A DNA stretch of 60,272 nucleotides, taken from Candidatus Woesearchaeota archaeon. GTDB lineage: Archaea; Nanobdellota; Nanobdellia; Woesearchaeales; DSVV01. The notes under the pieces were generated by a model. The model was given only the letters and a program-made list of their open reading frames with translations, made no database searches and was not told the DNA's origin. Every line of letters begins with the position of its first letter. Within the stretch, counting starts at the first letter, position 1. The DNA lies in assembly GCA_018303325.1 (NCBI GenBank), contig JAGVYH010000004.1, positions 1 to 60,272 on the forward strand. Direction: 5' to 3'. This document shows positions 110 through 48,270 of the stretch, one piece after another. Both the position numbers and the translations under genes were made by a program.

Positions 110-255
110 TATACTAAACGTGATTAATTTTCGTACAAATTAATCACGTTTGTAAGTTGGAAAGCAAAGCTTTCTAACTTCTCAGGAATCTCTGATTCCC
201 GAGATATACAAAAGTCCAGCGCAATAATGTTCGATTATTTTGTGCTTTTAGTATA
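110..255. mobile_element. Family-1 palindromic doublet (TATACTAAA...TTTTAGTATA) with two small hairpins nested between the units
   Basis: Units at 110-154 and 205-255 match copies at 5396, 11628, 19313 and 48223. AGTTGGAAAGC/GCTTTCTAACT and TCTCAGGAATC/GATTCCCGAGA lie between them. Confidence 0.7.
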
Positions 256-970
256 ATATACCTAAAGATGAATAGTTATTACCAAGCGAATCACTAAATT
301 CTTGAACTCTGCCAAGCATCTTTTGTCTTGTATCTATAATCATGGACAAACCGCTTATCAGAGGAATTGCTTTCTCGCTCAATGCGAATTTTTTAATTGC
401 ATATTGAATCATACCTACTAATTCTATTTCCTCGCCTAAAAGAACCTTTGTATCCTGTAATAAGGTATTGTAACATTCTTTTGCCTTTCTTAAATCACCA
501 TATGTGATGCGGGATATGCCATCAATTTCTATTTGATATATGTTTGCATATCCTTTGCATTCCTCAAATTTGGCTGCGAGAGGCTTATATTTGTTTAAAA
601 TAATCTTTTCTTTTTCAGTTATAGCTGATAATATTCTATTTGTCTCTGCTGAAGATATTTCATTCTCAATAAGATACTCAACTATATACTTGGATGCTAC
701 AGAATCCAATTGCAGAAATGAAGATTCAAGTGAAAGGTAATCATTTAAAAACAAAGTTAGGTTATGCGCCAATTTTATAAATGATACCTTTTCTAAATCT
801 TCTTTTTTCTTTGCTTCGCGCTTATCCTTTGCTTTATGCTGATATAATGCAATCCTTTGCTCAATGCTTTGATACACCTCTGTTTCTGTGTCTTGAATTT
901 TATCATTGCCATTGCAAGATACCATTCCTAAAATACTACTATAAACCAATGCTGCAATTGTTCTTTTCAT
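248..970 (-). CDS. Hypothetical lipoprotein-like helical protein
   Basis: MKRTIAALVYSSILGMVSC lipobox-like N-terminus. The stop codon lies in the end of the palindromic element. Confidence 0.65.
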   Translation of the reverse strand: MKRTIAALVYSSILGMVSCNGNDKIQDTETEVYQSIEQRIALYQHKAKDKREAKKKEDLEKVSFIKLAHNLTLFLNDYLSLESSFLQLDSVASKYIVEYLIENEISSAETNRILSAITEKEKIILNKYKPLAAKFEECKGYANIYQIEIDGISRITYGDLRKAKECYNTLLQDTKVLLGEEIELVGMIQYAIKKFALSEKAIPLISGLSMIIDTRQKMLGRVQEFSDSLGNNYSSLGILY

Positions 971-1196
971 GTTAAACACCTTCTTGTTAGTTTTATTTTT
1001 CACATGTTAGATTATTAATGTCAGTGACTATATATTAGATTAATCCTTAAGATTCTTAAGGCACTTTTAAATACAATAAAGAGATACACAGTTATATCCA
1101 ATTCAACAGAACCGACTATAATTACTTATGAAAATGGTAAGATTAAATGCGCTCTAATCTCGCCGTCAACATAATTGGATTAAAAAAACTTAAAAT

Positions 1197-1224
1197 AATT
1201 CATGAGACGTTTGGCTTCGCCCTA
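1197..1224 (+). repeat. Short repeat family 3 (CATGAGA..GG(A)CTTCG(T)CC), copy 1
   Basis: Similar to 30346-30377 and 39655-39687. Confidence 0.5.
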
Positions 1225-1300
1225 ATCTTCGAGGGGAGCGGAAGTTTCACTCAGGAAAAGTGATAAAATATATATATAAGGACTGACATATATGGTACAC

Positions 1301-1816
1301 ATGGACAGGAGACGATTCTTATTCAGTGGATTGGCAGCTTTAGTAGCCCTAAGCACGCCCAACATAGTTGATAAAGGTGTGGAGATGGTTGCGAGGGCTG
1401 GTGCGGAAGAGAAACAAGTCTATCAAACTATTGGAGATTATTATGATTCAGGAACACCTTCTGATAAAATGCCTGGTGCGAGACAATGTTCTGCTGATAG
1501 AATTGAAGATGAACTATTAGGATTTTCAGGGAGGGATTGGGTGGATTATTATTTTAATAATCCTTCTTATCGAAATGCATTTCAACAGTTATTTAGGGAA
1601 ATGGATGGTAAAGCTATACCTATTAATTCTCCAGAACATAGAGGAATTACTTCTGTTTTTGACTTTAAAAAATTTAATGATTACCTTAAATCAAATAAAG
1701 ATAGCATAAGTTCAGTTACTCTGTGGTATGATGGATTTATGAGTTTTGGAAGCACTTATGATTCAATTGTTATCCCTATATATCCAAATATTGTCACCAA
1801 AATAGAAAAATTATAA
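1301..1816 (+). CDS. Twin-arginine-leader secreted protein (module 1, gene A)
   Basis: MDRRRFLFSGLAALVAL leader, nearly the same as in 5743..6240. Start chosen by alignment with the paralog and TATA spacing. Confidence 0.75.
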   Translation: MDRRRFLFSGLAALVALSTPNIVDKGVEMVARAGAEEKQVYQTIGDYYDSGTPSDKMPGARQCSADRIEDELLGFSGRDWVDYYFNNPSYRNAFQQLFREMDGKAIPINSPEHRGITSVFDFKKFNDYLKSNKDSISSVTLWYDGFMSFGSTYDSIVIPIYPNIVTKIEKL

Positions 1817-1844
1817 ATACCCTTCTATACAATTATGTAATATC

Positions 1845-3512
1845 ATGAAAAAGAGTGTATTTTTTTGGGTTTATTTATTTTTATTAGGATTTTCTTTATT
1901 AAATGCACACGCAGTGGGTACAAAAGGAACTGCAATGGAAGGGGATACATATTTAAATTCTCCTGAAGCAGCCCAAGAAGCTGTCAACGGCGGCACAAAT
2001 GGTCCAGCTACTCTTCAAGTTGATGCAAATGTCAAAACTAATCATGGTTCTGACTTAGGGATGAAATCAGGAACAACTGTTACTGCAAGTCCTGGTACTG
2101 TAACTTTAACCTCAAAGGACACCATCACCGAAGACTCTAATTCATATACAAACGTTGAAAACCTCGTTCTTACAGAAAACACAGTTTCAGTTGATACCGC
2201 AGAAAGCTTAGAATCAAACAATGTCAAAGCAACAGGTGTAGTAGAGTTTTCACAAATGAAAAATACTGATGCATTTGATGCAAAGCATTTAGATGCAATT
2301 GAAATAACTACTCCTTCTGGCACTGTAACAATGACTAATGTAAATGACATCAATTATCTCAACGGCAATTATAATTTTGAACACGCTGATTATATCAAAA
2401 CAAATAATTTTGAAGCAGTTAACATAAATGATTTTTCAAGCGATGCACAGAAATTCACAACAACCAGCGCAGACACTTTAACTTCTGATTGTTTAGAGAT
2501 ATCAAAAATAGAAAATGCTGAATTTATTATAGATGAAACAAAACTTTTCGACAAAACCAAAACAATAGAAATGAAAGATTGTTTGGGAAATAATATTAAT
2601 TTTCAGGGTAATGACGACGGTTCCGCGCTGATTGTAAGCAAAGATACTCCTTATAGTTATTCCATCGCCAAAGGAACTCTTACCATTTCTCACGACGGGT
2701 ATGATGAGGTGTTATCTACATTCTCAACTGCCGCAGGAATAATGAATAATAATGGATTAACAATGATAGAAATGAATCCGACGACGGCTTACACGCAGAA
2801 AAATAATGACAATTATTTAGACAAGGGCAATACGTTAAAAGACTTCAGCATATATATCCCGAAGAATGCTGACAAATATCTTTTATTTATAAGAAAAGCA
2901 CAGGAAGAGGCAGAGCCTATCATTGATTACTGTCTGCAATGCGGTTATATGGATTTTATAACACACAAATTTGTATTAAAAGGTATTGTGAACTATTTAA
3001 GGCCTGTGTTTAATGATAAGTTTGAATTAATTACTCCTAAGCTAAGCATTGTTTACAACAGCACAGATAAATATAATAATGTAGTGTTTGAAATGGACGA
3101 GAATAATGTAATAGCCAACAACCTTGTTATTTCAAATGATAATATCAATAACATAAATACTGACAAAATAATAGCATTTGTTTACAACGGCGAATATCAT
3201 CTTTATGAAAGTGTAGAGAACGGAGAAGTAGTAGGGAGAATTAAGGTGAATTATTATTTTGCGCCGTATACAATAAAGAAAATCTCAACAGATTACGGCA
3301 AAGAATATCATAAGCCATTGATATTTGAAAATGGCGCGCTGATTATGGACAAGGAAGGAAATACGCTGACAATAAGAAGTCAAAATCAAGGGAATGCAAT
3401 CAATGTTTTGAAAGAGGATATTTATAATTATGACAAGAAGTTTGAAGATTGCAAACTCATTTCAGAATCTTTGTTTGGCTCTATGAATTTATTTGAGTGG
3501 ATTAATGAATAG
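1845..3512 (+). CDS. Large secreted beta-rich surface protein (module 1, gene B)
   Basis: Sec-type signal ending in AHA. C-terminal ~250 aa similar to the C-terminus of 6258..8408. Confidence 0.75.
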   Translation: MKKSVFFWVYLFLLGFSLLNAHAVGTKGTAMEGDTYLNSPEAAQEAVNGGTNGPATLQVDANVKTNHGSDLGMKSGTTVTASPGTVTLTSKDTITEDSNSYTNVENLVLTENTVSVDTAESLESNNVKATGVVEFSQMKNTDAFDAKHLDAIEITTPSGTVTMTNVNDINYLNGNYNFEHADYIKTNNFEAVNINDFSSDAQKFTTTSADTLTSDCLEISKIENAEFIIDETKLFDKTKTIEMKDCLGNNINFQGNDDGSALIVSKDTPYSYSIAKGTLTISHDGYDEVLSTFSTAAGIMNNNGLTMIEMNPTTAYTQKNNDNYLDKGNTLKDFSIYIPKNADKYLLFIRKAQEEAEPIIDYCLQCGYMDFITHKFVLKGIVNYLRPVFNDKFELITPKLSIVYNSTDKYNNVVFEMDENNVIANNLVISNDNINNINTDKIIAFVYNGEYHLYESVENGEVVGRIKVNYYFAPYTIKKISTDYGKEYHKPLIFENGALIMDKEGNTLTIRSQNQGNAINVLKEDIYNYDKKFEDCKLISESLFGSMNLFEWINE

Positions 3513-3519
3513 GTATAAA

Positions 3520-3620
3520 GTAAGATAGTAGGATGGTTTGATAGTAAGAAGATACTACGAATGGAACGATGGAAAGGGGTCGTTACCATCAAACCTTCTT
3601 ACCTTCCAACCATCTTACCT
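3520..3620. repeat. Octamer-repeat inverted element, copy 1
   Basis: GTAAGATA/GTAGGATG/GTTTGATA arm and CCATCAAA/CCTTCTTA/CCTTCCAA/CCATCTTA arm. Second copy at 18601. Confidence 0.7.
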
Positions 3621-3648
3621 TATACTTGAATAAAAAAGCTGATGCTCA

Positions 3649-4314
3649 ATGATTAATAAAATAAACAAGAAAAGTCAAATAACCCTCTTTATATTAATTG
3701 GGATTGTTTTTTTAGCAGTAATAGCGCTAATTTTTTTCGCTGAATTTACTAAAGGTGATAATGGTTATAAAAACAATGCAGTGCCGTCAGATGTTTCAGC
3801 ACATATAAATGCAGTCAACAAATATGTTTCTGAATGCTCGTTGTACACTCTTGGCAAAAATGCAGGCTATAATAAGTTTACACCTTATTTGTTGGCAGGT
3901 TTAGATGAATCTAGTCAGAATATTAATGAATTCTTTGAAAAGGTTATGCCTGGCTTAATTAATCTGGAAGCATTGAAAGGATATGAATCACATTATAAAA
4001 AAACAAGCGCAGAGGCTGAGTTCGGAGCAACTGATACCTTACTAAAGATAAAACATGATTATATTCTAAAAAAAGAATCTAAAATATTCAATGGAAGGGA
4101 ATTTGAAACAAAAATGAATGTAAGACTCAAAAAGCTCAGCGATAACGCAAAAATAGCTCAGGATGAAAAAGACATTAATCTTAATGAAATGAATAAACTA
4201 AATTTCAAAAAGGATATTGAATTAATGGACAAAGCCGAGGTTTTTGTTTTTACAGATGAAACCTCAATAATTAACAATATGCCTTATAAATTTATTTTTA
4301 CGAAAGAAAAGTAG
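3649..4314 (+). CDS. Class III signal peptide (pilin-like) membrane protein (module 1, gene C)
   Basis: KKSQ|ITLFILIGIVFLAVI motif typical of archaeal prepilin-peptidase substrates. Confidence 0.7.
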   Translation: MINKINKKSQITLFILIGIVFLAVIALIFFAEFTKGDNGYKNNAVPSDVSAHINAVNKYVSECSLYTLGKNAGYNKFTPYLLAGLDESSQNINEFFEKVMPGLINLEALKGYESHYKKTSAEAEFGATDTLLKIKHDYILKKESKIFNGREFETKMNVRLKKLSDNAKIAQDEKDINLNEMNKLNFKKDIELMDKAEVFVFTDETSIINNMPYKFIFTKEK

Positions 4315-4414
4315 TTGGGTTAGTTTCAACAAAATTATTTGCATTACCACAAAAATCATTACACTCTCTTGTTTTTGATTAAGCTCATTTCCTTCCTCAT
4401 CACATTTTACAAAT

Positions 4415-4437
4415 GAAAATTAATCACTTTTAGTATA
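4415..4437. repeat. Family-1 palindrome half copy
   Basis: GAAAATTAATCACTTTTAGTATA is identical to the end of the 11628-11720 copy. Confidence 0.6.
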
Positions 4438-4514
4438 GTTAAGTTATAAATCTTGATGACAAAAAACTAAGTGAATTAAGCAATAAAAGAAAAGAGATAA
4501 ATCTGCTTATTGCG

Positions 4515-5063
4515 TTATAATTTCTTTAATGCATCATCTATTTCTCTTCGTTCATATTCACCAATTCGATGATGTAATCCTGATACTATCCTAAATTTAG
4601 AATAAAGAAGATTTAATAGATATCCAACTAAGTGTTCTCTTCTCCCTTGAGAAACATCTTCTTCTTTAATATAAATAGAAACAAATGATTTTAAGCCATC
4701 ATTAAATTGTGAATCTGATATAATTTCTACACCAAATGTAGCCTTTAAATGTTTTATAGCATTTGAAATTAATATTTCACATCCTTCAATATCTCTTAAG
4801 GATTGTTCTGAAAAATGCCCAACTAAACCAACATATGTGGTTCTTATCCCTACTTTTTTTACTGCTTTAATTTTATCTAAAAATATCAAGTGATAATAGC
4901 CAATATTATAGCAATTTTCAGAATAAGTACCTGTAAATATTTTTTTCTCGTTCATTAATTCAAATAAGTCTCTATCAAATTCGTCAACAGATACTTCTTG
5001 CTTTTCTAATTTACTTGATAATTCATTAAGAACATTCTTCAATTTTGCCTCAAGGTCTTCCAT
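4515..5063 (-). CDS. Hypothetical protein
   Basis: Open frame from MEDLEAKL with an upstream TATA-like box. No motif recognised. Confidence 0.6.
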   Translation of the reverse strand: MEDLEAKLKNVLNELSSKLEKQEVSVDEFDRDLFELMNEKKIFTGTYSENCYNIGYYHLIFLDKIKAVKKVGIRTTYVGLVGHFSEQSLRDIEGCEILISNAIKHLKATFGVEIISDSQFNDGLKSFVSIYIKEEDVSQGRREHLVGYLLNLLYSKFRIVSGLHHRIGEYERREIDDALKKL

Positions 5064-5129
5064 AGCTAAAGAGAAGGACAAGTAATATTTAAAAATTATG
5101 ATAATAAGCAGTATCTCCAAAAGATTTTT

Positions 5130-5657
5130 GATTTAGGAAACTTAAACCAACCTCATCTCAAAAAAGCTGCTGAGATAAAATTCAACATAAAACTTTCTGA
5201 CGTTGATAAGAATTCTCACTTAACTATGGATGGTGATGAATTAAAAACATTAGACATTACTTTCAAAGACGACAATTCAGAGCTCGTCATGGAGAACCCT
5301 TTAGCGCATGACAAACCACAGTATAAATATGCTGATGAGTTTAAAGATACTGATGGTGATGGATTAACAGATAATATGGAATTGAACAATAACCTTTTTC
5401 GTACAAATTAATCACGTTTGTATATACAAAAGTGCAAAATAATGTTCGATTATTTTGTACTTTTAGTATATCCTACTGATGCAAAAGAATACAATACTTA
5501 TCCAGAAATAGGTTATGAAGATGATTACAAGTTCGTAGAGTATTTTCTAAGCAATCCTGCGATATTTAATGAAGTGAAAACATTAGGCATAGAAGATGAT
5601 CCTTTGCAGGACAGTGATGGTTTCCATTTTCTAATAATAACTCTTAGTGAAAAATAG
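5130..5657 (+). pseudogene. Fragmentary paralog of the 6258..8408 gene, interrupted by a family-1 element
   Basis: 5130-5395 matches ~6672-6935 (KYADEFKDTDGDGLTDNMELNNNL) and 5467-5620 matches ~6958-7129. No signal peptide. Confidence 0.8.
5396..5470. mobile_element. Family-1 palindromic doublet (left-truncated) inserted at TATA
   Basis: Ends TTTTAG-TATA-TCCTACTGA, while the intact paralog reads ATTATGA-TATA-TCCTACTGA. Confidence 0.75.
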
Positions 5658-5742
5658 CCTGTCGGCAGGACTTCGCTGAGAGCGGTTTCACACTGAAAAA
5701 GTAGTAAAATATATAAATCTATGGATAATACTTTATTATATA

Positions 5743-6240
5743 ATGGATAGAAGAAGATTATTGCAAATAGCTGTTGCTGGATTAGTAGCTTTAGCTACGC
5801 CTCAAGTAGTTGACAAAGGACTGGAAATGATTGCAAGTGTGAGTGCGGAGGAAAAGGAGAAAAAGCCAGAAACAGTAGATGATATTTTGGCAGGAACCTC
5901 TTTTGAAGAGGTTTGTTCTGATAATTATGCTGAAAAAACAAAATATGGAAATGTAGTTGTGTTCTTTTATGATAAAAATGACACTAATGGTGCATCTACA
6001 AGGTTGGCTCAAGTTTACAGAAGTATTGAACTTGAATACAAAGCGAATATAATTTTTTTAAAATTTGGAGATTCTATACAAAGAAAGGATTCAAAAAAAT
6101 ACGTACCGGAAGTTCCGTATACTTTATTTTATAAAAAGGGAGAAATTATTGATCAGTTGGCTGGTGGGCCAAAAGAGGATTTTAATTTGGAAATCTGGAC
6201 AAAAGATTTTAGAAAAGGTCTAGATAAATTATATAAATAA
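5743..6240 (+). CDS. Twin-arginine-leader thioredoxin-fold protein lacking CxxC (module 2, gene A)
   Basis: MDRRRLLQ leader. VVVFFY...VPYTLFYKKGEIIDQLAG is thioredoxin-like; no CxxC. Confidence 0.65.
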   Translation: MDRRRLLQIAVAGLVALATPQVVDKGLEMIASVSAEEKEKKPETVDDILAGTSFEEVCSDNYAEKTKYGNVVVFFYDKNDTNGASTRLAQVYRSIELEYKANIIFLKFGDSIQRKDSKKYVPEVPYTLFYKKGEIIDQLAGGPKEDFNLEIWTKDFRKGLDKLYK

Positions 6241-6257
6241 AAATGTAAGTGTTAGAT

Positions 6258-8408
6258 ATGTTTAAAAAAAAGAGGATATTTATTTCAATCATTGTATTAT
6301 TTATATTAATCTTAGTTTTACCATTCACATTTTCTTTTGATGTTACTGAGGAAACTGCATCGGATTTCTCAAACAAACAACTCTCCTCCTCCGATTATTC
6401 CTCCCCCTCTGCATATCCAGACATTTTCTCCAATCCTAATTTCCAGGTCAATCAAGTTCCGTCACAATATGTTTCTCAAATTCCACCAGACAAACTCCAA
6501 GGCAAAACTTCTCAGCTAAAAAAAGAGCAAGTTCCTTTTCTCTCTGATTCTCAAATAAAAGGATTAAATGGAGATGATGTTTCTAATATTATCAATCAAT
6601 TAACTCCATCTCAAGAAAGCTCTTTAACAACAGACCAGCTTTCTCATTCTAATAATCTTGAAGAAGTTTCAGACTTAAGCAATCTCAACCAAAAAAACAT
6701 GCAAAACGCTGCTCAAATAAAATTCAACATAAAACTTCCTGACGTCGATAAGAATTCTCATTTAACTATGGATGGTGATAAATTAAAAACATTAGAAATC
6801 ACTTTCAAAAACACAGAGCAATTAATCATGGAGAATCCTTTAGCGCATGACAAACCACAGTATAAATATGCTGATGAGTTTAAAGATACTGATGGTGATG
6901 GATTAACAGATAATATGGAATTGAACAATAACCTTACTGATTATCTGGAAATTATGATATATCCTACTGATGGAAACAAGTATAATACATTCCCTGACGC
7001 TGGATTCAGCAATGACAAAGAATTCGTTGACTTTTACTCAACAACAGAAGATGCAGAGTTTAATATTGGCGGAGTTAATGTTATGGAAACATTTAATATT
7101 TACAATGACCTTGCAAAAGATTCTGATGGTGATGGTATATCAGATCTTAAAGAGTTCTACATCAATTACAACCCTGAAAATAATGATATAGACAATGATG
7201 GCCTAAGCGATGGCTATGAAATCAAAAATGCTTTAGACCCGAAAAATCCTTCAGCACTGCCAAACATGATATTAAGCAAGGATTGCAAAGATTGTCTTAT
7301 CAAAGTAAAAGGGAATAAAGAGGATTATTTCAAGATAAACTTTAATCAGGATTCTTTTAGTATAGACACGAATGCAAAGGTTTCTATCGGCGGAAAAGCA
7401 ATGGATTATGCGATGTTTACTGCGCTAGATGAGTCAGTAACATCAATATCAGCTGCACAGGATAATTCAATAGAATTAACTTCGACAAGAACAGAAGCTG
7501 GCTATATCTTTTCCTCAGAAAATACAAACAGCACCATCACCAGCAATAATTACAAAGAAATTGTTCTCGGAAAAAGCTCTAAATATGAAACAGTTCTTAA
7601 CGACGGCGTTATCTACGCAGAGCTTAATTCAGCTGGAAGATATGAATATATTAGTATTCCGATGAAAAGTTTTGCGATTGTGAGAAAGGAAAAAGAGAAT
7701 TATTTTATATATATTGACAAGCCAAGCAAAAGATTAAGTTATGACGAATACAAGAATAAATTAAACAATAACAACAAATTAGAAGATAATACTTTAGAAA
7801 ATAACAACATAGAAGATAATACTCTAGAAAATAACAACATAGAAGATAATACTCTAGAAAATAACAATCTAAAAGACAATAATCATAAGAATAATAAACT
7901 AAAAAACAAAAACTCTGCATATATCAGCGCAGAAGAACATATAATTAATTTAAACGGCAAAGTTACCTTTCTTAAAAACGAGCCGTACAGTTTCGTAGAG
8001 CATCCTCTTTATTTAAGTTATGACAATGAGAATAATGCTGAGCTGATATTTGATGCAAATAATGTTTATGTAAACCTAACTATAACTAATAATAATATTG
8101 ACTGCTCAGAAAACAGAACAATAAGCGATGTTTATTCTGGTATGTTTTTGGTTTCAGAGCAGTGTATCAACGGGAAAGTAGAACGGACTGGAAAATTTAT
8201 TGAAGCCCTGCCGGGTTATGTCAAAAGATATTCCGCTAGTTTTCATAATGGTATTGGTTATTTTGACAAAGAAATGTTTAGTCAAGAGACAAATGAGAGG
8301 ATAACTCTGGTTAGAATGATTTCTGTTCTTAATTATGGTGAGGTAAACAGGCTAAAAGAAGGATGGCAGAAACTAAAAAGCAGGCTGTGGGTTGGAGAGA
8401 ATCAATAG
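6258..8408 (+). CDS. Large secreted surface protein with DxDGDG Ca-binding repeats (module 2, gene B)
   Basis: Hydrophobic signal; DTDGDGLTD, DSDGDGISD and DIDNDGLSD motifs; 30-nt tandem repeat near 7780-7870. Confidence 0.75.
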   Translation: MFKKKRIFISIIVLFILILVLPFTFSFDVTEETASDFSNKQLSSSDYSSPSAYPDIFSNPNFQVNQVPSQYVSQIPPDKLQGKTSQLKKEQVPFLSDSQIKGLNGDDVSNIINQLTPSQESSLTTDQLSHSNNLEEVSDLSNLNQKNMQNAAQIKFNIKLPDVDKNSHLTMDGDKLKTLEITFKNTEQLIMENPLAHDKPQYKYADEFKDTDGDGLTDNMELNNNLTDYLEIMIYPTDGNKYNTFPDAGFSNDKEFVDFYSTTEDAEFNIGGVNVMETFNIYNDLAKDSDGDGISDLKEFYINYNPENNDIDNDGLSDGYEIKNALDPKNPSALPNMILSKDCKDCLIKVKGNKEDYFKINFNQDSFSIDTNAKVSIGGKAMDYAMFTALDESVTSISAAQDNSIELTSTRTEAGYIFSSENTNSTITSNNYKEIVLGKSSKYETVLNDGVIYAELNSAGRYEYISIPMKSFAIVRKEKENYFIYIDKPSKRLSYDEYKNKLNNNNKLEDNTLENNNIEDNTLENNNIEDNTLENNNLKDNNHKNNKLKNKNSAYISAEEHIINLNGKVTFLKNEPYSFVEHPLYLSYDNENNAELIFDANNVYVNLTITNNNIDCSENRTISDVYSGMFLVSEQCINGKVERTGKFIEALPGYVKRYSASFHNGIGYFDKEMFSQETNERITLVRMISVLNYGEVNRLKEGWQKLKSRLWVGENQ
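7778..7870 (+). repeat. In-frame 30-nt tandem repeat (IEDNTLENNN x3)
   Basis: atagaagataatactctagaaaataacaac repeated three times. Confidence 0.85.
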
Positions 8409-8455
8409 GCGAATTAACAGAGTATTATTTGAAAAACTCAAAAGATGAAAAAAAG

Positions 8456-9175
8456 GTGAAGAAAATCAATAAGCGAATTAATAAGAAAGCAACAATAATT
8501 ACTTGGTTTATAATAATCTGTTTAGTATTACTTATAGGAATTATTCTTTATACTTATATGACACAGGTAAGCATTAAGCCATTAAAGTTAAAAACAGACG
8601 AGCTTAAGATAGTAAAAGAATACACCGAGATTTGTTTAGGAAATGTTCTGGATAACTCATTGTTTATTGCAGCGAAACAAGGTGGCTATATCTGGCCCGA
8701 AACCACTATTGAAACACCTTTTGGCAATACTTCAATAGGTGCAGCTAAAAAAGAAACAAGCGAAATGCAGATATCAAAGTATATTACTAATAAATTACCC
8801 TCATGCCTGAATAATTACAGCTTTTTCCAAGAAAAAGGATTGGTTATTAAACAGGGTTTATTGGTTTTAAAAACAATAATTGGTGAGAATAATATTAACG
8901 CAATTGTAACCATGCCTGTAAAAATAGTTGATAATTCATCTAATGTTCAAGTAGTACAATTTACTAAAGAAAAAGAGATTAGATTAGGCAAACTTATTCA
9001 GTATGCTAAAGAAGTTCTTGAATATGATGATGTTGGATTATCTTATTTAAGCACGCTTGATGTTAATACAACCATAATAAAACAAGATAATAATATTGTC
9101 TATGTCTTTGAAGATGAAAATTCGCTGGTAAAAGACGCAAAGTATTTATTTATGTTCGCAAAGGAAGTAGAATAG
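8456..9175 (+). CDS. Class III signal peptide (pilin-like) membrane protein (module 2, gene C)
   Basis: KKA|TIITWFIIICLVLLIG. C-terminus VYVFEDENSLVKDAKYLFMFAKE resembles VFVFTDETSIINNMPYKFIFTKE of 3649..4314. Start uncertain (ORF opens at 8363). Confidence 0.7.
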   Translation: MKKINKRINKKATIITWFIIICLVLLIGIILYTYMTQVSIKPLKLKTDELKIVKEYTEICLGNVLDNSLFIAAKQGGYIWPETTIETPFGNTSIGAAKKETSEMQISKYITNKLPSCLNNYSFFQEKGLVIKQGLLVLKTIIGENNINAIVTMPVKIVDNSSNVQVVQFTKEKEIRLGKLIQYAKEVLEYDDVGLSYLSTLDVNTTIIKQDNNIVYVFEDENSLVKDAKYLFMFAKEVE

Positions 9176-9217
9176 TGTAAATAATAAACAAATACAGAAA
9201 GTTATTATAGTTGAATA

Positions 9218-10603
9218 ATGAAAAAAAGAGGATATTTAGTTATAATCTCAGTAGTAGCAATAATTCTTTTAGTTAGTTTTGCCGCTGGAGAATGCACTGC
9301 CCCATCAAGTAATCTTACATCAACTAATTTTGTTATAGATAAAAATACAGAGCTATGCACAGCAGATTACAATATTAATGAAGGTATAATTATTGGCAAT
9401 GATAATGTTCTGCTAAACTGCAACAATGCAAAAATAATCGGTGAGTTTAGCGGTATAGGAATTAAAATAGAGGAAAAGAATAATATCAAAATAATTAACT
9501 GCACTATTAAAGATTTTTCAACAGGCATTTATATAGAGGATTCAACAAAAATAAGCATTACTAATAATATCTTAGATAATAATCGAATAGGAATTATTCT
9601 TGAGAATTCTCCAGATATTGCAATGAATAATAATATTGACACAAGTTATTTAAAACCAATAGAAATCATTGAAACAAATGACAATGAAAAAAATAAAGAA
9701 AGTAATAATGAGCCTGATTCTGAAAATGCTGGAACTAACATCACAGAAACAAATGATGAAAAAGAAACAGAAAATGAAAATATAAAAGAAACAACTGAAC
9801 AAAGCAAAGAAAAAATAAAAGAAAACTTAAAAGAAATAAATAAAAGTTTAAAAGAAATTAATAAAGAAACAGAAACCTCCTATTTAAAAGAGACTGTGAT
9901 AAACAATCCGCCTGACACATTTCTTCCAGTAAGAACCTCTGACAAAATAAAAGCACTGCAGTCAGTAGAAATCTCAAAAACAAGAACTTTAGCAATAGAT
10001 AAAACAGGAAAAGAAAAAACAACGTATAAAACAGCGATAAAAGCACTAAAAGATATTAAGGGGTTGGTTATTTACGAATATTTCCCAAAATCAGTTGCAG
10101 AAAATGTCAAAGAAATTAATTTTGAGAGTGATAATGATTTTGGCGATGCTGATTTTGAAAATAAAAACACCAAATTTATTCTTATTGAAGAAGACCCTTT
10201 GGTAAAAAAAGAGGTTGGTGATTTAAAAAAAGATGAAGTTGTCACTATTACTTACAGCCTTGATAGAGCAATCTCAGGAGACACAAACCCCAGCAGTGTT
10301 GTGACAATAGAGAATTCATCAAGACTGATTAGCACATTAGCCAATATATCATACATATTAGCATTGTATCTTGTATTAGTGCTTGTTAAAAAATACAAGG
10401 CAGATAACCTGCTTAAGGAATTCAAAACCAAAACAAAAAAGTTGTTGGGTGTGCCTTTTCCTATTGCTTACATTGTGCTTTCAGTTGTTCCAAGTGTAAA
10501 TTATAGATTTCTGGCAAGCGAAAACATGGCTGTTTTGTTTTATGTTGTGATGATACTTATTTTGTTAGGAATAATAATCTCTTTGGTGAAAAAGAAGGAA
10601 TGA
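9218..10603 (+). CDS. Surface protein with parallel beta-helix (NosD/pectin-lyase-like) domain and C-terminal TM helices
   Basis: Signal peptide; GIKIEEKNNIKIINCTI/GIYIEDSTKISITNNIL repeats; three C-terminal hydrophobic segments. Confidence 0.7.
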   Translation: MKKRGYLVIISVVAIILLVSFAAGECTAPSSNLTSTNFVIDKNTELCTADYNINEGIIIGNDNVLLNCNNAKIIGEFSGIGIKIEEKNNIKIINCTIKDFSTGIYIEDSTKISITNNILDNNRIGIILENSPDIAMNNNIDTSYLKPIEIIETNDNEKNKESNNEPDSENAGTNITETNDEKETENENIKETTEQSKEKIKENLKEINKSLKEINKETETSYLKETVINNPPDTFLPVRTSDKIKALQSVEISKTRTLAIDKTGKEKTTYKTAIKALKDIKGLVIYEYFPKSVAENVKEINFESDNDFGDADFENKNTKFILIEEDPLVKKEVGDLKKDEVVTITYSLDRAISGDTNPSSVVTIENSSRLISTLANISYILALYLVLVLVKKYKADNLLKEFKTKTKKLLGVPFPIAYIVLSVVPSVNYRFLASENMAVLFYVVMILILLGIIISLVKKKE

Positions 10604-10864
10604 GAAGCTTTAACTTTATCAGTCTGCTCAGTAATATCTTTGAGCTTGTTCTCAACTTGTTGAAGATGGGAGCTCATTTTCCCACCTCAAAGACTTCTCC
10701 ACATTCTGTGCCGAAGATAATCTCTCCTACAATCTCATATTCGCAAAAATGTTTTTTGTTTTATAAAATTGGTTAATTATCGATAATTTTTCGGTTTTCT
10801 CCGAAAAGCTGTCTGTTCCACTACTGCATATAGTTTTAAATAGAAAAGATTACAAATTCATTAT

Positions 10865-11317
10865 ATGTACAACTTAAAACAATTTAATGGAACTTTTAAG
10901 GGCATAATTGGTGAATGTCTCTTTAAATTTACTAAGAAGGATGTTATTATTCCTAAATTTTTTAATAAAAATAAATATTCTCTAATCTTTGGAAGATATT
11001 TTAATGAAGCACAGATTAGATTTCTTATTGATAACTGGTATTCAATAGACGCAATAGAAATATTATTTGAACGTGGAAGGAATAAAATAATTCTTTACGA
11101 AGTTAAAACAAATAATTATGAAAGAATAGAAAAAGGATTCAGAACAAAAATAACACAATCAACTGTAGATATTTACAATAAAGCAAAGAAATTAGGTTTT
11201 GATGTTAAGACAGCTTATGTTCTACTCCTCGATAATTGGAATTATGGTGTTGAAATAAATGAATTTAAAGCAGAGGATTTTTGTGTTGACAGACCAAAAG
11301 TATATGACAAACATTAG
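10865..11317 (+). CDS. PD-(D/E)xK nuclease-fold protein
   Basis: GIIGE...SIDAIE...LYEVKT motif arrangement. Confidence 0.6.
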   Translation: MYNLKQFNGTFKGIIGECLFKFTKKDVIIPKFFNKNKYSLIFGRYFNEAQIRFLIDNWYSIDAIEILFERGRNKIILYEVKTNNYERIEKGFRTKITQSTVDIYNKAKKLGFDVKTAYVLLLDNWNYGVEINEFKAEDFCVDRPKVYDKH

Positions 11318-11393
11318 TGTAAGTATAGCTACTTTTCTTTATATTGATAACTTGTTTGATATAAAATTATACCAAGAAAAATATAAAGAAAAG

Positions 11394-11504
11394 TAGCCCC
11401 GGACGGATTCGAACCGTCGTCCAAGCCTTTCTTTACTTAGGTTTTAAAGCCAATCATAATTAAGCTCCAAAGGGCTCGATGATGGACCGCTACACTACGG
11501 GGCT
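11394..11504 (-). tRNA. tRNA-Gln(TTG) with 38-nt canonical 37/38 intron (11429-11466)
   Basis: AGCCCCG/CGGGGCT acceptor stem, GAGCC/GGCTT anticodon stem, GGTTCGAATCC T arm. BHB helix CTTT/AAAG with outer GCTTA/TAAGT. Confidence 0.95.
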
Positions 11505-11627
11505 GTCATTGGTGATGTTAGTGTAGCAAAAGTTAAAGGCTATTTAAAAATATTTCGCTGAGAAGATTATAAGAAAGGGATTATCCATCGTATTATAGAA
11601 AAGAGGGTATACTTTCAAAAGAGTTTA

Positions 11628-11720
11628 TATACTAAAAGTGCAAAATAATCGAACATTATTTTGCACTTTTGTATATACAAAAGTGATTAATTTGTTCGAA
11701 AATTAATCACTTTTAGTATA
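11628..11720. mobile_element. Complete family-1 inverted palindromic doublet
   Basis: Two ~48-nt hairpins in opposite orientation, TATA at both ends, flanked by 36-bp direct repeats (34/36 identical). Confidence 0.8.
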
Positions 11721-11760
11721 GAAAAGAAGTTATACTTTCAAAAGAGTTTATACAATCAGT

Positions 11761-12375
11761 TCACGCATTCTGCAAATTTTCCAGATATCCTTCTTCAAGA
11801 TAATATTTTGATTTTGACTTGCAGTAATAAACAGTTATTTTTGTTCTTGAATCATTGTTGCTCAACCCGAGAACATCTATTAATTTCTGGATAACTCGCT
11901 CTTCATTTATTTTATACTGCTCATATAGAATTATATCCACATCCATGATATCTGAATCTCGTATAAACACGCGGTTATTAACAGGCTCATTATTTACTCT
12001 GAATACCCATGCCTCGCTGTTATATTCGTTAGAAGTCCTTTTTATATCAACCTTTAGTTCTTGTGTTTGGCTTATTTTTAATGCAACAATCTCATTAAAT
12101 GTTTTTAGCTGAGACTGCATTAAACAATTAATCATCTCTTTTGCCTCTTCAATATTCTTGCAGAAGAACTCTTCATTGAAGTTTATATTATTCTGCGCAA
12201 CATATTTTAGGTATATAACCCATCTTTCGCTAGAAGATTCTTCATTTTCTTGAATTTCTCTTACAGATACTCCTCTTATAGATTCTTCTTTTCTTGCCTC
12301 TATTCTTATATCTAATTTAAGCATAGATGTTTCATACACAAGTACTTCATTCGTTTCAATGACCTTTTTCCACAT
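11761..12375 (-). CDS. Hypothetical protein
   Basis: 204-aa ORF with an upstream TATA box. No motif recognised. Confidence 0.65.
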   Translation of the reverse strand: MWKKVIETNEVLVYETSMLKLDIRIEARKEESIRGVSVREIQENEESSSERWVIYLKYVAQNNINFNEEFFCKNIEEAKEMINCLMQSQLKTFNEIVALKISQTQELKVDIKRTSNEYNSEAWVFRVNNEPVNNRVFIRDSDIMDVDIILYEQYKINEERVIQKLIDVLGLSNNDSRTKITVYYCKSKSKYYLEEGYLENLQNA

Positions 12376-12504
12376 ACAGTATATTAATGTGTATACTAGT
12401 TTATATATTTTTCTTTTTTGAACCGAAAAACAGCAAGTGAAGCTCCCAATCGCAGCAAAACTATGAGAATTTCTTTCTGATTAAACAGAAAAATATAAAA
12501 AGCG

Positions 12505-12522
12505 CACTATAGTCACTATAGT
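12505..12522 (+). promoter_or_regulatory. Putative operator: tandem ACTATAGT palindromes between TATA and ATG
   Basis: CACTATAGT-CACTATAGT lies downstream of AATATAAA (12492-12499) and 3 nt before the start codon. Confidence 0.6.
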
Positions 12523-12525
12523 AAT

Positions 12526-14067
12526 ATGAAAGAAAATAGCTCTACAACCATATGGATAAAAGCTAAAACCAAAGAATTATTGGATAAAGCAGGAAGTAAA
12601 GGTGAAACTTACGATGACATAATAAATAGACTGCTTTCCAAAAGCATAACTCAAATCCCTGTAAATGTAAGCAATCTTAAGATTTACAGGCAAGGTGTTG
12701 AGGCAAGACCTTATTTTGTGTCAATACCTTATGTTTGCGCACTTAAAAGATTGGGTATTAAAACTTCTTTTGCTTATTATGCTGGTAAGAAAAACTACAG
12801 TTATTGGAGTCAGGATGTTACAACAAAGTTAGCAATGGAAGAGATTATGAAACATGTTAATGATGGCAGTTATATTCAAAAAAAAATTAGTGAATGGGAA
12901 TTTATAGTTGAAGAGCAAATAGCAATAGAAAAAAAATTAACTAATTTAGGGAAAATGAGTAATGAGGAGTTAATTGGAACTCTTCGGAAAATCAAAGCAG
13001 TCATAGAATCCTCATGGGAAATAGGAATAATGATAGAATTATTTGACCCCGACAGCGAAGGCATTATTATGGAACTGCTCAATAAGTATGACAAAAATAA
13101 TATTTCCCAAAAAGAGTTTCAAATGCTTTGCTTGCCTGAGATATTAACTTATATTCAAAAAGAGCTTCTCAGCCTTTATGAAATTGCAGAAAAAAAAGAT
13201 TATGGACAATTAGATGAGCATGCCCGCAGATTTTTCTGGATAAAAAACACATGGGCAGACACAGTTGTATTGGACAAAAATTTTTTCAGAGCAAAGATTG
13301 CAAGGCTTGAAGAGGAAGGCATAAATTTCAGGTTAGAACTGGAAAAGATTTATGAAAATCTAAATAATCTTAAAAAAGAAAGGAAAAGGATTTTGGAAAA
13401 TAAAACCTGCTCAGTTAAGATAAGAAGGGCAGTTGAATTTTTTGAGATAATGACACTATGGAGAGAGAGAAGAAAAAAATATGCGCTAATCAGCAATCAT
13501 TATCTTAATCTGTTTGCAAAGGAAATTTCTAAGCGCTCTAACGTCAAGCACGAATTATTAATGTATTCTTATGCAGATGAGCTTGAATTGCCGATGGATG
13601 AAACCTTTGTTGAAGAGCTCAGAAAAAGAGAAAAAATTTGCCTCCAATATGTTGATGAGCAGGGAATTCATTTTGTCTCTGGGAAAGTTGTAGAGGATTT
13701 TGTAGAAGAGATAAAAGGCATGACAGAGCAGCAGGTTGCAAGGCTCTACGGCAATGTTGCCAACCCAGGCAAAGTTGAAGGCATTGCAAAAATAATTTTC
13801 ATAACATCTGATATGATCAAGATGGAGAAAGGCGACATACTTGTCTCACCTTGTACAAGACCAGAATATGTGCCAGCAATGAAAAAGGCTTCTGCGATTA
13901 TTACAGACGAAGGAGGCATCACCAGCCATGCAGCGATTGTTTCAAGGGAATTAGGCGTGCCTTGTATTGTTGGATTAAGGAACGCAACTGATGTGATTAA
14001 AGACGGCGATTTAATTCTGGTTAATGCAAACCATGGGATTGTGCAGATAATGAAGAGGAAGGGATAA
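12526..14067 (+). CDS. RHH-like DNA-binding domain fused to PEP-utilising enzyme mobile (phospho-His) domain protein
   Basis: N-terminus TTIWIKAKTKELLDKAGSKGETYDDIINRLL; C-terminus GDILVSPCTRPEYVPAMKKASAIITDEGGITSHAAIVSRELGVP. No ATP-grasp domain seen. Confidence 0.8.
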   Translation: MKENSSTTIWIKAKTKELLDKAGSKGETYDDIINRLLSKSITQIPVNVSNLKIYRQGVEARPYFVSIPYVCALKRLGIKTSFAYYAGKKNYSYWSQDVTTKLAMEEIMKHVNDGSYIQKKISEWEFIVEEQIAIEKKLTNLGKMSNEELIGTLRKIKAVIESSWEIGIMIELFDPDSEGIIMELLNKYDKNNISQKEFQMLCLPEILTYIQKELLSLYEIAEKKDYGQLDEHARRFFWIKNTWADTVVLDKNFFRAKIARLEEEGINFRLELEKIYENLNNLKKERKRILENKTCSVKIRRAVEFFEIMTLWRERRKKYALISNHYLNLFAKEISKRSNVKHELLMYSYADELELPMDETFVEELRKREKICLQYVDEQGIHFVSGKVVEDFVEEIKGMTEQQVARLYGNVANPGKVEGIAKIIFITSDMIKMEKGDILVSPCTRPEYVPAMKKASAIITDEGGITSHAAIVSRELGVPCIVGLRNATDVIKDGDLILVNANHGIVQIMKRKG

Positions 14068-14199
14068 TATTTTTATTTTTTATTTTAAATGTTTGCATTG
14101 GTAATTTTTTATTAATACACTCCGATTCAACAGTATTTAATATTCTTCAACTTCGGAAAATTTTAGAAAAAAGATGGAAACATTTATATATTAGTTAAG

Positions 14200-14235
14200 C
14201 TACATCACATTTAATAAGCTTAATTTGTGATGTAG
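14200..14235 (+). promoter_or_regulatory. Inverted-repeat operator upstream of an HTH/nucleotidyltransferase pair
   Basis: CTACATCACA-N16-TGTGATGTAG between the TATA box and ATG 14237. Confidence 0.6.
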
Positions 14236-14236
14236 A

Positions 14237-17776: not shown

Positions 17777-17831
17777 ATGATTTTGTGAGATTGTGCCAAC
17801 TACTTTATTTTGTAGAACACAGTAGTTGAGA

Positions 17832-39490: not shown

Positions 39491-39654
39491 TAATGCCTTC
39501 TTTCTTGCTTTTTGTATTTGTTTTTATTTAGTTCTTGGCATGTCCAACAAAGTTCATGAAGAAAGTTAATAATTTATTATAATTCTGTGCTGTTAATAGC
39601 TTACGATAAAATAATTAGATAATAATTGATAATAACTTAGATAATAATTAAAAT

Positions 39655-39687
39655 TCATGAGACGGTGGACTTCGTCCTAGGAACTAA
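39655..39687 (+). repeat. Short repeat family 3, copy 3
   Basis: TCATGAGACGGTGGACTTCGTCCTAGGAACTAA. Confidence 0.55.
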
Positions 39688-45546: not shown

Positions 45547-46677
45547 ATGGAAGATGCAAGCGGAAGAAATGATGATGATGTGCCAGCTGCAATACCAACT
45601 GGTGAGGATGAGCAAGGAGGGGTTAGGACAGATAATATACATGGAATAGAGGGTAAAGTTAATGATGCGACAGAAAAAACAACAGATGACCTCTTGGCAA
45701 AATCTAAGAAATTTAAGAAAGAGAGAGGCAATAAACCAGGTAGTAACCCACAATATACACCAAGACAAGCTCTTGAAGAACTAGCTATTGCTGATGAGGA
45801 AAGAGCATTAGTTGGAACTTGGTTAGAAGGGAAAGACCTTAAACAATTATCAGTTCTTCAGGAAATAGGTTATTGGGTTTACAAGAGACTGCCTTCATCA
45901 TGGAAAAATGATGGTGTAAAACAATTAGAGGATGCTGACGCAGATTATCAAACCAGACGTGATGCAATAAAATGGGATATTGATTTTATTGAAAAAAGAT
46001 TGCATGATGAGAGTACAACTCGCGGTGGTACACCATCAGGATTATACAAATTAGCAGACCATTATGAAATAATCATGAGAGAAGCAGCTGAATCTTCTAT
46101 CTCTGCATATGATTTAATGGGTGAGATACATGCTAAGATTAGAGAGAATGAAGAAAAATTAAAAACAACACCATTAAAAAATAAAGAATCAAGAAAAGAT
46201 TTAGATGCAGAGATCAAAGCATTAAGAAAAGAAAAAAAAGAATTGAGAGATAATTACATAACTGATAAAAATAATTATACAGTGAACAAAAATTGCTTAG
46301 GTAGTGTACAAAGAGAAATAAGAGAATTAGAAAACAAACAAGAAGAAATGTACACAAAACTTCAGACATTAGATGCAGTATATACTGCACAAGTACAAAT
46401 CGGACCTAGTGTGTCAGGGGATACAATTGCTGCTGCTGCAGTAAAAGAAGTGGAAGCAGACGAATCTCTTGAGCAATATGTTAATCTTGCAGGTAGAGCA
46501 AATCAGGTAGAACTAAAGAAAAGAGTAATCATAAGAGGAATGACTAGCAGCACAACAATGAAACCAGGAGAGGCACCAGAGGTAAGTGACTTGACTAGAC
46601 CTAAAACAGATGACGACATGAAGTACGAACAAAACCTTTTAACAGAGATGAGATCTGTAGCAAATTACGACAAATAG
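45547..46677 (+). CDS. Long coiled-coil protein
   Basis: Heptad-rich central region; GGAGG SD; directly upstream of an AAA ATPase. Confidence 0.75.
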   Translation: MEDASGRNDDDVPAAIPTGEDEQGGVRTDNIHGIEGKVNDATEKTTDDLLAKSKKFKKERGNKPGSNPQYTPRQALEELAIADEERALVGTWLEGKDLKQLSVLQEIGYWVYKRLPSSWKNDGVKQLEDADADYQTRRDAIKWDIDFIEKRLHDESTTRGGTPSGLYKLADHYEIIMREAAESSISAYDLMGEIHAKIRENEEKLKTTPLKNKESRKDLDAEIKALRKEKKELRDNYITDKNNYTVNKNCLGSVQREIRELENKQEEMYTKLQTLDAVYTAQVQIGPSVSGDTIAAAAVKEVEADESLEQYVNLAGRANQVELKKRVIIRGMTSSTTMKPGEAPEVSDLTRPKTDDDMKYEQNLLTEMRSVANYDK

Positions 46678-46711
46678 AAACAGACAAAATGAGCTAACTG
46701 GTGCTTTAACA

Positions 46712-48163
46712 ATGATAACTGAAATTTTAGTGACACCTAATGAGTATTTTAGAGCAGAACACAATACTTCATCAATATTAGGTGAGAGAGGTTATAACCT
46801 TGAAAGAAGATTAAGTAGTTGTGGCTATACAGAGCAAACTACATCATCAAACAAGGTTTATAACGCTCTTCTTTCTTTTTTTACCAGTCAAGAAGCTGTA
46901 TTTCAGAAATATAAAGAAGAATTAGGCGATGTTGAAGCATTATTATTAGGCATATATCTCGGCGCAAAAGTCGGCAAAAAAGTGTTAAGTTATGAAAATG
47001 GAAAAAGCAGTGATGAATTCAAAGATATAAAAATTGATTTCGAAAAAACAAGCACAGATGCTATTAGCGATATAATCAAAGCGTATATTTCTAAAATGTG
47101 TTATAAAACTAAAAGAGAGACAGAAGCATTTACACTGGCTTTCTTTGACTGGAATATTGACTCTTCATTAGAAACTATGGCAAAGACACATAGAGGTATA
47201 TACAACAAAATTAAAAAAAAGACTGCACAAATAAAAGGAGAAACTTATGTTATTGATTTTGAAGAGAATACACGAGTTAATAAAAAAGATAATTATGTGG
47301 AGATAAGTTTTGAAGATCCAGCATTTGATGAAAGAAAGAAAATAAGGAAAGTGAGAGAACATGATTATATAGCTGGCCACGAAGATGTTAAAGAGGAATT
47401 TAGAAATATAATAAAAAAAATCAATGACAGAAAAAGGCTTAATAAAAGATACAATCCTGGAAAAATATTTTTCAATTATCTTCTTAAAGGTCCGCCTGGA
47501 ACAGGTAAGACCACATTAATAGAAGGTCTTTCTGAAGAAGCCGGCCTTTTATTTCATGTGAAAAAAGGCGCTGAGTTAGTAAGTACTTATTTTGGTGGCA
47601 GTGCAATTAATGTTAATAGTGCATATAAAAAGATTTTCAAAGAAGTAAGAGATGGAAATTACGAAGGTGCTGTATTTGTTATTGATGAAGCAGATGGAAT
47701 TACTGGTGAAAGAAGCCAAAAGGGTGCTGACAATAGTCAAATGGACATGATTGTTACTACATTAAATACATGTATGTTAGAATATTTGTTTGTGCCAATT
47801 ATAACTATATTTGCAACTAATAAACCTGAAAAGATAGACAAGGCAATAAGAAGTAGGATGAAAAAATTAACAATGGGATATCCAAAAACACCGGAAGAGG
47901 AAATAGCAATACACAGAAAAATAATGGAAAAGATGGAAGCAAATTGCCAAGAGGGTAGGATATTTGGCGATGTAAATATAAGTGAATTACTAAACTTCTC
48001 GCAATTAGATGTAACACTTAAATCTGGAAGAGAGATAGATAGATTATATCATGAAACAGCAATAGAATTAGATTTAACATCGCCAAGCGAACTTGTTACA
48101 ACAGCTCATTTATTAGCACAGTTTGAAAAACATAAATACAATTCGGATAATGAAGAGGAATAA
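46712..48163 (+). CDS. Classical-clade AAA+ ATPase
   Basis: GPPGTGKT, pore loop STYFGGS, VIDEAD and SRH ATNKPEKIDKAIRSR. Confidence 0.9.
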   Translation: MITEILVTPNEYFRAEHNTSSILGERGYNLERRLSSCGYTEQTTSSNKVYNALLSFFTSQEAVFQKYKEELGDVEALLLGIYLGAKVGKKVLSYENGKSSDEFKDIKIDFEKTSTDAISDIIKAYISKMCYKTKRETEAFTLAFFDWNIDSSLETMAKTHRGIYNKIKKKTAQIKGETYVIDFEENTRVNKKDNYVEISFEDPAFDERKKIRKVREHDYIAGHEDVKEEFRNIIKKINDRKRLNKRYNPGKIFFNYLLKGPPGTGKTTLIEGLSEEAGLLFHVKKGAELVSTYFGGSAINVNSAYKKIFKEVRDGNYEGAVFVIDEADGITGERSQKGADNSQMDMIVTTLNTCMLEYLFVPIITIFATNKPEKIDKAIRSRMKKLTMGYPKTPEEEIAIHRKIMEKMEANCQEGRIFGDVNISELLNFSQLDVTLKSGREIDRLYHETAIELDLTSPSELVTTAHLLAQFEKHKYNSDNEEE

Positions 48164-48222
48164 TTAAGTGATTATAACATAATTAGTTCATTATTACAAA
48201 TTAAATGAAAAATTATTAGTTA

Positions 48223-48270
48223 TATACTAAACTGAATTAGTTTTCCTACAAATTAATCACTTTTAGTATA
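48223..48270. repeat. Degenerate family-1 unit
   Basis: TATACTAAAC...AAATTAATCACTTTTAGTATA, 48 nt. Confidence 0.6.

Follow-up and report, generated by a model that had tools for sequence, protein, structure and literature searches.

Hairpin units in the window

The DNA considered here is contig JAGVYH010000004.1 of a Candidatus Woesearchaeota archaeon from groundwater, analysed over its whole length of 60,272 nt and called the window below. It is contig C73 of a genome (G000) of 1.97 Mb in 78 contigs with 33% G+C. Short hairpins are scattered over it that belong to one repeat family, whose commonest form in the genome is an 89-nt inverted doublet with TA at either side and two differing hairpin halves. 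A first-pass annotation had pointed to copies at six places and had proposed an archaeal analogue of the bacterial repetitive extragenic palindromic (REP) elements and their inverted doublets (REPINs), which are mobilised by REP-associated tyrosine transposases (RAYTs). Sequence reading and a covariance model agree that each of the six places holds family members; the 7 complete units of about 47 nt and 2 partial ones in the window all lie there. The element is mobile, and on balance the family is probably, though with considerable doubt, a non-autonomous DNA transposon of the TA type, a MITE (miniature inverted-repeat transposable element) in the broad sense.

A unit of 46-48 nt begins with TATAC, an extra T and AAA(A/C)G, continues with a variable stem of about 10 bp, the loop (T)CGAAC or TCGTAC and the complementary stem, and closes with C(T/G)TTT and GTATA. 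The covariance model, built from 50 distinct units and run on the whole window with filters off at E≤1, gave 18 matches, which after merging yield the 7 complete units; the remaining matches are opposite-strand echoes or weak (E 0.05-0.54). The motif TATACTAAAMG with at most one mismatch occurs 15 times in the window against 4.21 ± 1.80 expected, and none of 100 shuffles reaches 15. One exact match of the 11-mer, at 7354-7364, has no hairpin and is probably due to chance.

How are the units arranged? The doublet at 11628-11720 (+) is complete, with unit A forward at 11628-11675, unit B in reverse at 11674-11720 (69.5 and 71.1 bits) and TA on either side, and the stretch 11626-11722 is predicted to fold into two separate DNA hairpins (-29.5 kcal/mol, z -10.35). 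At 5396-5470 (-) lies a truncated doublet, composed of a complete unit (5423-5470, 65 bits) and the loop and 3' arm of a second unit (5396-5422). The single unit at 19313-19360 (+, 69.2 bits) has the GCACAAAATAAT stem and stands between two open reading frames (ORFs), while that at 48223-48270 is degenerate: both its ends are of the bulge type, its arms (GAATTAGTTT against AAATTAATC) are mismatched, and it scores 35.6 and 29.1 bits on the two strands. The partial unit at 4415-4437 (-) consists of the outer arm and the foot only.

The remaining place is a 146-nt composite at 110-255, which folds as four hairpins. Its left end is a 46-nt unit (110-155, +) with the GTGATTAATTT stem, an AAACG/CGTTT foot and a TCGTAC loop (53.4 bits), and its right end is a unit of the GCACAAAATAAT type with a decayed inner arm (205-255, -; 38.2 bits). 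Between both units lies a 50-nt module (155-204, +) which by DNA folding forms two small hairpins. The module is a multi-copy one in its own right: of 28 BLAST matches in the genome, 25 are near-full copies, most of them 100% identical. The element had been said to supply the stop codon of a gene near 248, and the coordinates bear this out: the ORF at 248-1003 (-) ends in a TAA at 250-248, within TATAC-TAA-AAG. A homologue search returned only the ORF itself, which the element may have shortened.

Two places have neighbours that deserve a word. The stretches 5113-5396 and 6655-6935 are a duplicated part of a thrombospondin-type-3-like repeat protein gene, 80-99% identical, and the upstream copy of the gene is cut short by the truncated doublet. 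An empty TATA site had been claimed at 5467 from this pair; the claim is only in part right, for the right junction alone is comparable with the paralog at 6935, and the truncated doublet replaces about 24 nt. About 120 nt from the doublet at 11628 lies a 111-nt tRNA (11394-11504, -), found by its Rfam match and missed by ARAGORN, which probably contains an intron, as in archaea. It is the sole match at the gathering score in an Rfam scan of the window, where the repeat units match no Rfam family.

Covariation and structure

The single unpaired T and the covarying stems of the first-pass annotation are well supported by an alignment of 50 distinct units from the window and 16 other archaeal assemblies. 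Standard pairs fill 92.2% of the stem cells against 75.7% in shuffles, with none of 500 shuffles reaching 92.2%, and only 34-56% of cells pair when the partner column is slid out of the true register. Changes on both sides are seen in 14 of the 20 pairs, in 165 cells. Note that the five outermost pairs are invariant, but the search pattern demanded these pairs for part of the alignment set; similarly, all 50 units have the ends TATAC(T)AAAAG, which the pattern search required for part of the set. G-U pairs are scarce in the stems, about 11 of 992 cells, for which a DNA-level constraint is a better fit than one on a single RNA strand. A wobble test for RNA-level selection is unusable, the mismatches being too few and mixed with loop-edge positions.

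In the genome, perfect pairing is found in 92 of 125 bulge-oriented units. The loop among these 125 is CGAAC in 41, TCGAAC in 38 and TCGTAC in 9 (88 in total), and it is reversed once. The loop thus lies nearly always in one direction relative to the bulge, and the bulge side and the loop direction are therefore coupled while the stems diverge.

Copy number and recent amplification

How many copies does the genome hold? A genome-wide count had been suggested as a check, and it gives a large family. The unit model has at least 150 matches (the best 150 of 4723 candidates scored), and the exact 11-mer occurs 199 times over 56 contigs. A strict hairpin pattern finds 144 units at 104 loci, 40 of them in the size range of doublets (88-91 nt) and 64 in that of singles (42-46 nt). 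Searching with a doublet pattern yields 41 doublets, which fall into 21 distinct sequences with identical classes of 9, 6, 5, 3 and 2. These identical classes, and the 92 perfectly paired units, show that the doublet family has recently multiplied.

The outer ends of the doublet, TACTAAAAG.. and ..CTTTTAGTA, make it a small, non-coding element with terminal inverted repeats. The two largest doublet classes differ in the two bases after AAAAG, TG in one and CA in the other, and the difference extends over both hairpins and all four arms at once. There are therefore four copies of an 11-13-nt terminal motif per doublet, namely TAC(T)AAAAGTG, with the extra T in the two outer copies.

Empty sites and target preference

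Does the element move? The left and right flanks of every locus were searched separately against the genome, and the matches were inspected. Four doublets have paralogous empty sites (C34:6058-6146, C46:7050-7138, C47:3698-3786 and C55:41961-42049). In all four the doublet lies within one copy of some other repeat, and paralogous copies of that repeat are unoccupied, with three clean empty copies for C46 and two for C47. In every case the occupied site has the form TA-[89 nt]-TA, and a single TA stands at the unoccupied one. In a fifth case a divergent doublet lies within an IS200 transposase remnant on C77, and when the doublet and one TA are taken out the reading ...KRYIQE is regained, against KHYIQE in the intact gene on C5. 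The doublet element is thus mobile. The junctions at the four sites are equally compatible with an 89-nt element plus a TA duplication and with a 91-nt insertion after TA. Two 'empty sites' of single units, on C12 and C24, were rejected, as they are differing combinations of adjoining elements and not filled and empty pairs.

A host repeat of about 150 nt with conserved ends was aligned in eight copies (C61:1790-1945, C60:9706-9860, C47:3620-3860, C3:14205-14410, C53:3450-3655, C60:48216-48420, C6:58100-58355 and C77:13415-13570). In these copies the same central spot is occupied by the doublet, by one of three different single units or by another palindrome family, or it is vacant. The centre of this repeat is an insertion hot spot or an exchangeable core.

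What target does the doublet prefer? TA stands on both sides in all 32 oriented doublets. Against a background of about 36% at 39,954 intergenic TA sites, the neighbouring positions favour A at -1 (20/32, p 0.002) and T at +1 (22/32, p 0.0002), and those farther out favour A at +2 (21/32, p 0.0007) and T at -2 (17/32, p 0.04). The preferred target is palindromic, T-A-[TA]-T-A.

Gene context and distribution among genomes

The gene calls of the genome are crude and ORF-based (1551 ORFs, about 81% coding). Although so much of the genome is coding, 101 of the 104 loci are intergenic. They fall into tandem, divergent and convergent gaps in numbers of 57, 21 and 20; gap length (191 kb tandem, 87 kb divergent and 54 kb convergent) would predict about 56, 26 and 16. 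Copies beside 3' gene ends number 71 and those beside 5' ends 73, so there is no 3' bias. This balance, together with that of the gap types, argues against a dedicated terminator role. A function as intrinsic terminator or 3'-end stabiliser was accordingly rejected, there being no enrichment at 3' ends and no depletion between divergent genes.

The unit model was run on 41 relatives and has matches in four: G000, G001 of the same genus (112), G003 of another genus (30) and G009 (one weak match, E 5.4e-4). Among 151 genomes sampled from the class, matches were found in two, G000 and G193, with stricter filters and 40 candidates scored per genome. When species representatives were scanned with the exact pattern, at least 68 loci were obtained. 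Among the matches listed, 49 belong to 16 assemblies of archaea, whose labels are Woesearchaeota, Nanoarchaeota/Nanoarchaeia, 'Methanosarcinales' or 'archaeon', and 19 are bacterial-labelled, 18 of them without loop or doublet partner; those 18 look like chance matches. Five genomes of the pattern scan were searched again with the unit model, and all five match. The distribution is thus patchy. In G001, many contig ends lie inside elements. The nineteenth bacterial-labelled match, on a contig of a record labelled Parcubacteria group bacterium (L042), is a true family doublet, owing either to mis-binning or to transfer. Two pattern matches in viral contigs lack a hairpin and were set aside as chance.

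A possible mechanism and the search for the enzyme

What kind of mobile element is this? In the preferred reading, a TA-type MITE, the doublet, which inserts at the TA inside T-A-[TA]-T-A and ends up with TA at both sides, would be moved in trans by an enzyme encoded beside none of the copies. Since TA is present on both sides and the target has two-fold symmetry, the likeliest chemistry would be that of IS630/Tc1-mariner, in which a DDE-type transposase makes cuts staggered by 2 bp. Each end may be recognised or kept up as a folded hairpin rather than as plain duplex sequence: foot, bulged T and loop are conserved while the stems covary freely, which points to folded-hairpin recognition or homogenisation.

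Several points weigh against this reading. A DDE enzyme acting on duplex terminal repeats does not by itself explain the stem covariation, and identical junctions would result from a Y1 enzyme that cuts after TA or from a recombinase that crosses over there. A DDE_3 (IS630) search gave 0 matches in G000, G001 and G003, and the IS630 copies present in 3 of the 41 relatives (G002, G025 and G039) are TA-flanked with terminal repeats unrelated to the family. The mariner model matched in none of the five carriers tested, but its control likewise gave no match. An autonomous copy was sought, and no pair of element ends encloses a transposase. No presence/absence case was seen between strains: the window has only 8068-10604 in common with the same-genus G001 (87% identity), and synteny in this sole orthologous stretch is lost at the gene end, right at the stop. 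Logan contigs on window positions 1-20000 are broken at repeats and contain no joint skipping an element, which is uninformative either way. The p-values of the target positions are optimistic, because some flanks lie within other repeats and the 32 flanks are not fully independent. Finally, all the genomes are incomplete metagenome-assembled genomes (MAGs), G000 being 91.7% complete, and multi-copy insertion sequences (IS) often fail to assemble; a missing match is therefore weak evidence.

Candidate partners of other kinds were tried and rejected. DDE_Tnp_1 matches in all five carriers, but also in 18 of the 41 relatives, and the carriers' copies are not homologous to one another; rve matches in one of five carriers, G001 only. 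Element-end pairs 250-6000 nt apart, taken as possible autonomous copies, proved to be adjoining doublets. Four ORFs have units on both sides; they encode a PEP-utiliser paralog and proteins of 111, 116 (Cys-rich) and 360 aa, none of them transposase-like, and the regions between doublet pairs in G003 hold housekeeping genes. Among the multi-copy proteins of the G000 assembly no high-identity transposase family was found; its largest families of paralogs comprise an unknown 542-aa family with 19 members, the PEP-utiliser family with 15, and the Bro-N, nucleotidyltransferase and Xer-like families.

Some of these genes may be described in their own right. A 450-aa DDE_Tnp_1 transposase of G000 (L098, C21:1495-2847, -) has ends unrelated to the family, and it is a decaying IS, since fragments of it lie on C47, C57 and C52. 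The PEP-utiliser family has a member in the window (12526-14067) and 14 paralogs, proteins that end in the PEP-utiliser mobile domain. The unannotated 542-aa family is represented by C75:31993-33621 and 18 paralogs.

Might the enzyme belong to a class that is not yet recognised as a transposase? The family would then be a REPIN-like system of DPANN archaea with a single-copy hairpin reader and integration at TA, which we regard as possible but unlikely. Such a reader may be hidden among unannotated Woesearchaeal ORFs and would recognise the foot, the bulged T and the CGAAC loop. It would explain the free stem covariation, and also the lack of a Y1, IS630, mariner, serine-recombinase or shared DDE gene whose occurrence follows that of the element.

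A true REPIN/RAYT analogue seems unlikely. Here a single-copy Y1-HUH enzyme would read the bulged hairpins as single-stranded DNA, cut after the TA of the left flank and after the terminal TA of the element, and re-insert it 3' of a TA with no real duplication, a 91-nt insertion that fits the junctions equally. IS608 TnpA and TnpA-REP read hairpins via an extrahelical T or the loop while stems vary, and in our family, too, the extrahelical T and the loop are conserved and the stems variable; inverted doublets dominate, with singles alongside. There is moreover one intact PF01797 gene in each of G000 and G001. However, the gene in G000 (L001, C5:827-1303) is of the ordinary IS200 type: the GC-rich hairpins at its ends are its own, units of the family are absent from its flanks, and there is a decayed second copy (L002, C77:16683-16796). 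The GC-rich hairpins in the IS200 flanks on C5 and C77 are unrelated to the family ends, and an IS200/IS605-derived palindromic MITE of the PATE (palindrome-associated transposable element) kind was rejected on this ground. The first-pass annotation had suggested looking for a Y1-HUH gene flanked by units, and none of 10 Y1 loci in 10 genomes is so flanked; into an eleventh, the C77 remnant, a doublet has inserted. Of the 41 relatives, 15 have Y1 genes, 13 of them with no significant element match (G009 has the one weak match), while a Y1 search of G003, 90% complete and with its 30 unit-model matches, found none. The target context is symmetric, and neither a GTAG nor a CGTC tag is present. 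Thus the proposal of an archaeal REP/REPIN analogue stands as regards short extragenic bulged palindromes, inverted doublets, mobility and an archaeal host, but mobilisation by a Y1-HUH enzyme of the RAYT type is unsupported. As to the resident IS200, a search of G000 for TnpB (PF07282) did not find it, and a sequence resembling IS200 ends lies at C53:9080-9330 with nested hairpin insertions.

Conservative site-specific recombination is a slightly more doubtful alternative. The element would excise as a circle with the joined-end palindrome CTTTTAGTA-TA-TACTAAAAG, and a crossing-over at the central TA of this palindrome with pseudo-sites resembling TATATA would be the work of a serine or tyrosine recombinase. 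This would agree with the target, as T-A-[TA]-T-A is the core of the inner junction GTA-TA-TAC of the element, which is palindromic in every doublet, and a Xer-like gene (C63:4796-5272) lies about 260 nt from an element cluster (C63:5530-5623). On the other hand, the resolvase family has 0 matches in G000, G001, G003 and G041 and is present in one of five carriers tested; tyrosine recombinases, found in 39 of the 41 relatives, are not enriched in carriers; circle junctions were not observed; and a recombinase that binds duplex DNA has no need of covarying arms.

The idea that the copies are immobile host sites (bidirectional terminators, protein-binding palindromes or small structured RNAs) draws on hairpins with T runs, intergenic position, covarying stems and the one copy that supplies a stop codon, but as the primary nature of the family it is very improbable and largely refuted by the filled and empty paralogous sites, the spread over tandem, divergent and convergent gaps in proportion to intergenic length, the 37 of 41 relatives in which the family was not found, the rarity of G-U pairs and the want of an Rfam family.

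Neighbouring repeat families

Other palindromes accompany the family. A second hairpin family, ACAAACTGGGT...CCCAGTTTGT, lies at 49-95 of the window and also near C37:~8300 and C55:~57130, in each case inside split GCAATTAATT-type units; element families therefore insert into one another. The leftover 3' arm of the split GCAATTAATT-type unit is at 96-112 of the window. A dispersed palindrome of about 43 nt, TAGTAAGTGAC...GTCACTTACTA, is found at 1006-1035, 20120-20168 and 20651-20700 of the window, at C5:~2490-2530, and on C12 and C15. This distinct family is picked up by the unit model in the form of weak echoes (E 0.05-0.43). The motif ...TCATGAGACG..GGCTTCGCCC stands at three places of the window, 1182-1222, 30328-30368 and 39637-39677.

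Implications

Why is the family of concern? It is found in a small DPANN genome, which nevertheless contains well over a hundred recently amplified double-hairpin copies and several further hairpin families nested within each other. It gives a clean and countable case of mobile DNA in Woesearchaeota: the target, TA within TATATA, is defined, the covariation is strong, and a transposase is not visible. The REP/RAYT label is tempting and is corrected by these data. The family may help to find the missing enzyme, to track strains and to explain the fragmentation of these MAGs at repeats, and it would become considerably more interesting if that enzyme were a new kind of hairpin reader.

Comparison with known systems

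In the literature on RAYTs and REPINs in archaea, on MITEs or palindromes in Woesearchaeota and other DPANN, and on Correia and TA MITEs, no description of the family was found. The attC sites of integrons are folded single-strand hairpins with extrahelical bases, in which structure and not stem sequence is conserved. The likeness would be a mechanistic analogy only, as our family has no integron integrase context and no cassette arrays.

Among archaeal elements, Sulfolobus SM1 and the haloarchaeal PATE elements are linked via their ends to identifiable IS families. The Woesearchaeal family resembles Sulfolobus SM1-SM4 and the haloarchaeal MITEs in being a small non-autonomous element of archaeal intergenic DNA (PMC10969869), but their ends are tied to identifiable IS families and its ends are not. 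In its available text, a 2024 review gives as archaeal hosts of MITEs only Sulfolobus, Halobacterium, Haloquadratum, Desulfurococcus and 'several other' genomes, with DPANN not among them (PMC10969869). A 2024 census counts 'a Woesearchaea genome', with 105 MITEs per Mb, among the archaea in which these elements are densest, and its available text does not describe them (PMC11602168).

With the REP/REPIN-RAYT system the family shares extragenic imperfect palindromes in high copy number, the conservation of structure rather than stem sequence, and the inverted doublet as the replicating form with singles as leftovers, as far as the available parts of three accounts go (PMC3116915, PMC3337134, PMC3733652). 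The GTAG and CGTC tags, and the arrangement in which REPs flank RAYT genes, are defined in the portion consulted of PMC3733652. Our family has no such tag and, at 10 loci, no Y1 gene flanked by units; its halves have different stems and fold separately instead of forming one long hairpin; and its target is symmetric with TA on both sides. REPINs with their RAYTs are described in the same available parts as vertically inherited (PMC3116915, PMC3337134, PMC3733652), whereas the present family is patchy.

The nearest likeness in general form is to pneumococcal RUP and the Correia elements of Neisseria. According to the available text of a 2007 review, MITEs commonly have TA ends, A+T richness and a target duplication, and RUP is linked to IS630-Spn1 (PMC2229807). 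Like our family, RUP and Correia are shorter than 200 bp, non-coding, A+T-rich and mostly intergenic; they have terminal inverted repeats that end in TA and a TA target duplication; and they insert into IS and other repeats, with the transposase often unknown (available parts of PMC2229807 and PMC10969869). Unlike them, the present family has no IS with matching ends in any carrier examined, it conserves only 11-13 nt of its ends, and each of its halves is a hairpin of its own, with a covarying stem, a conserved loop and a bulged T, in a DPANN archaeon.

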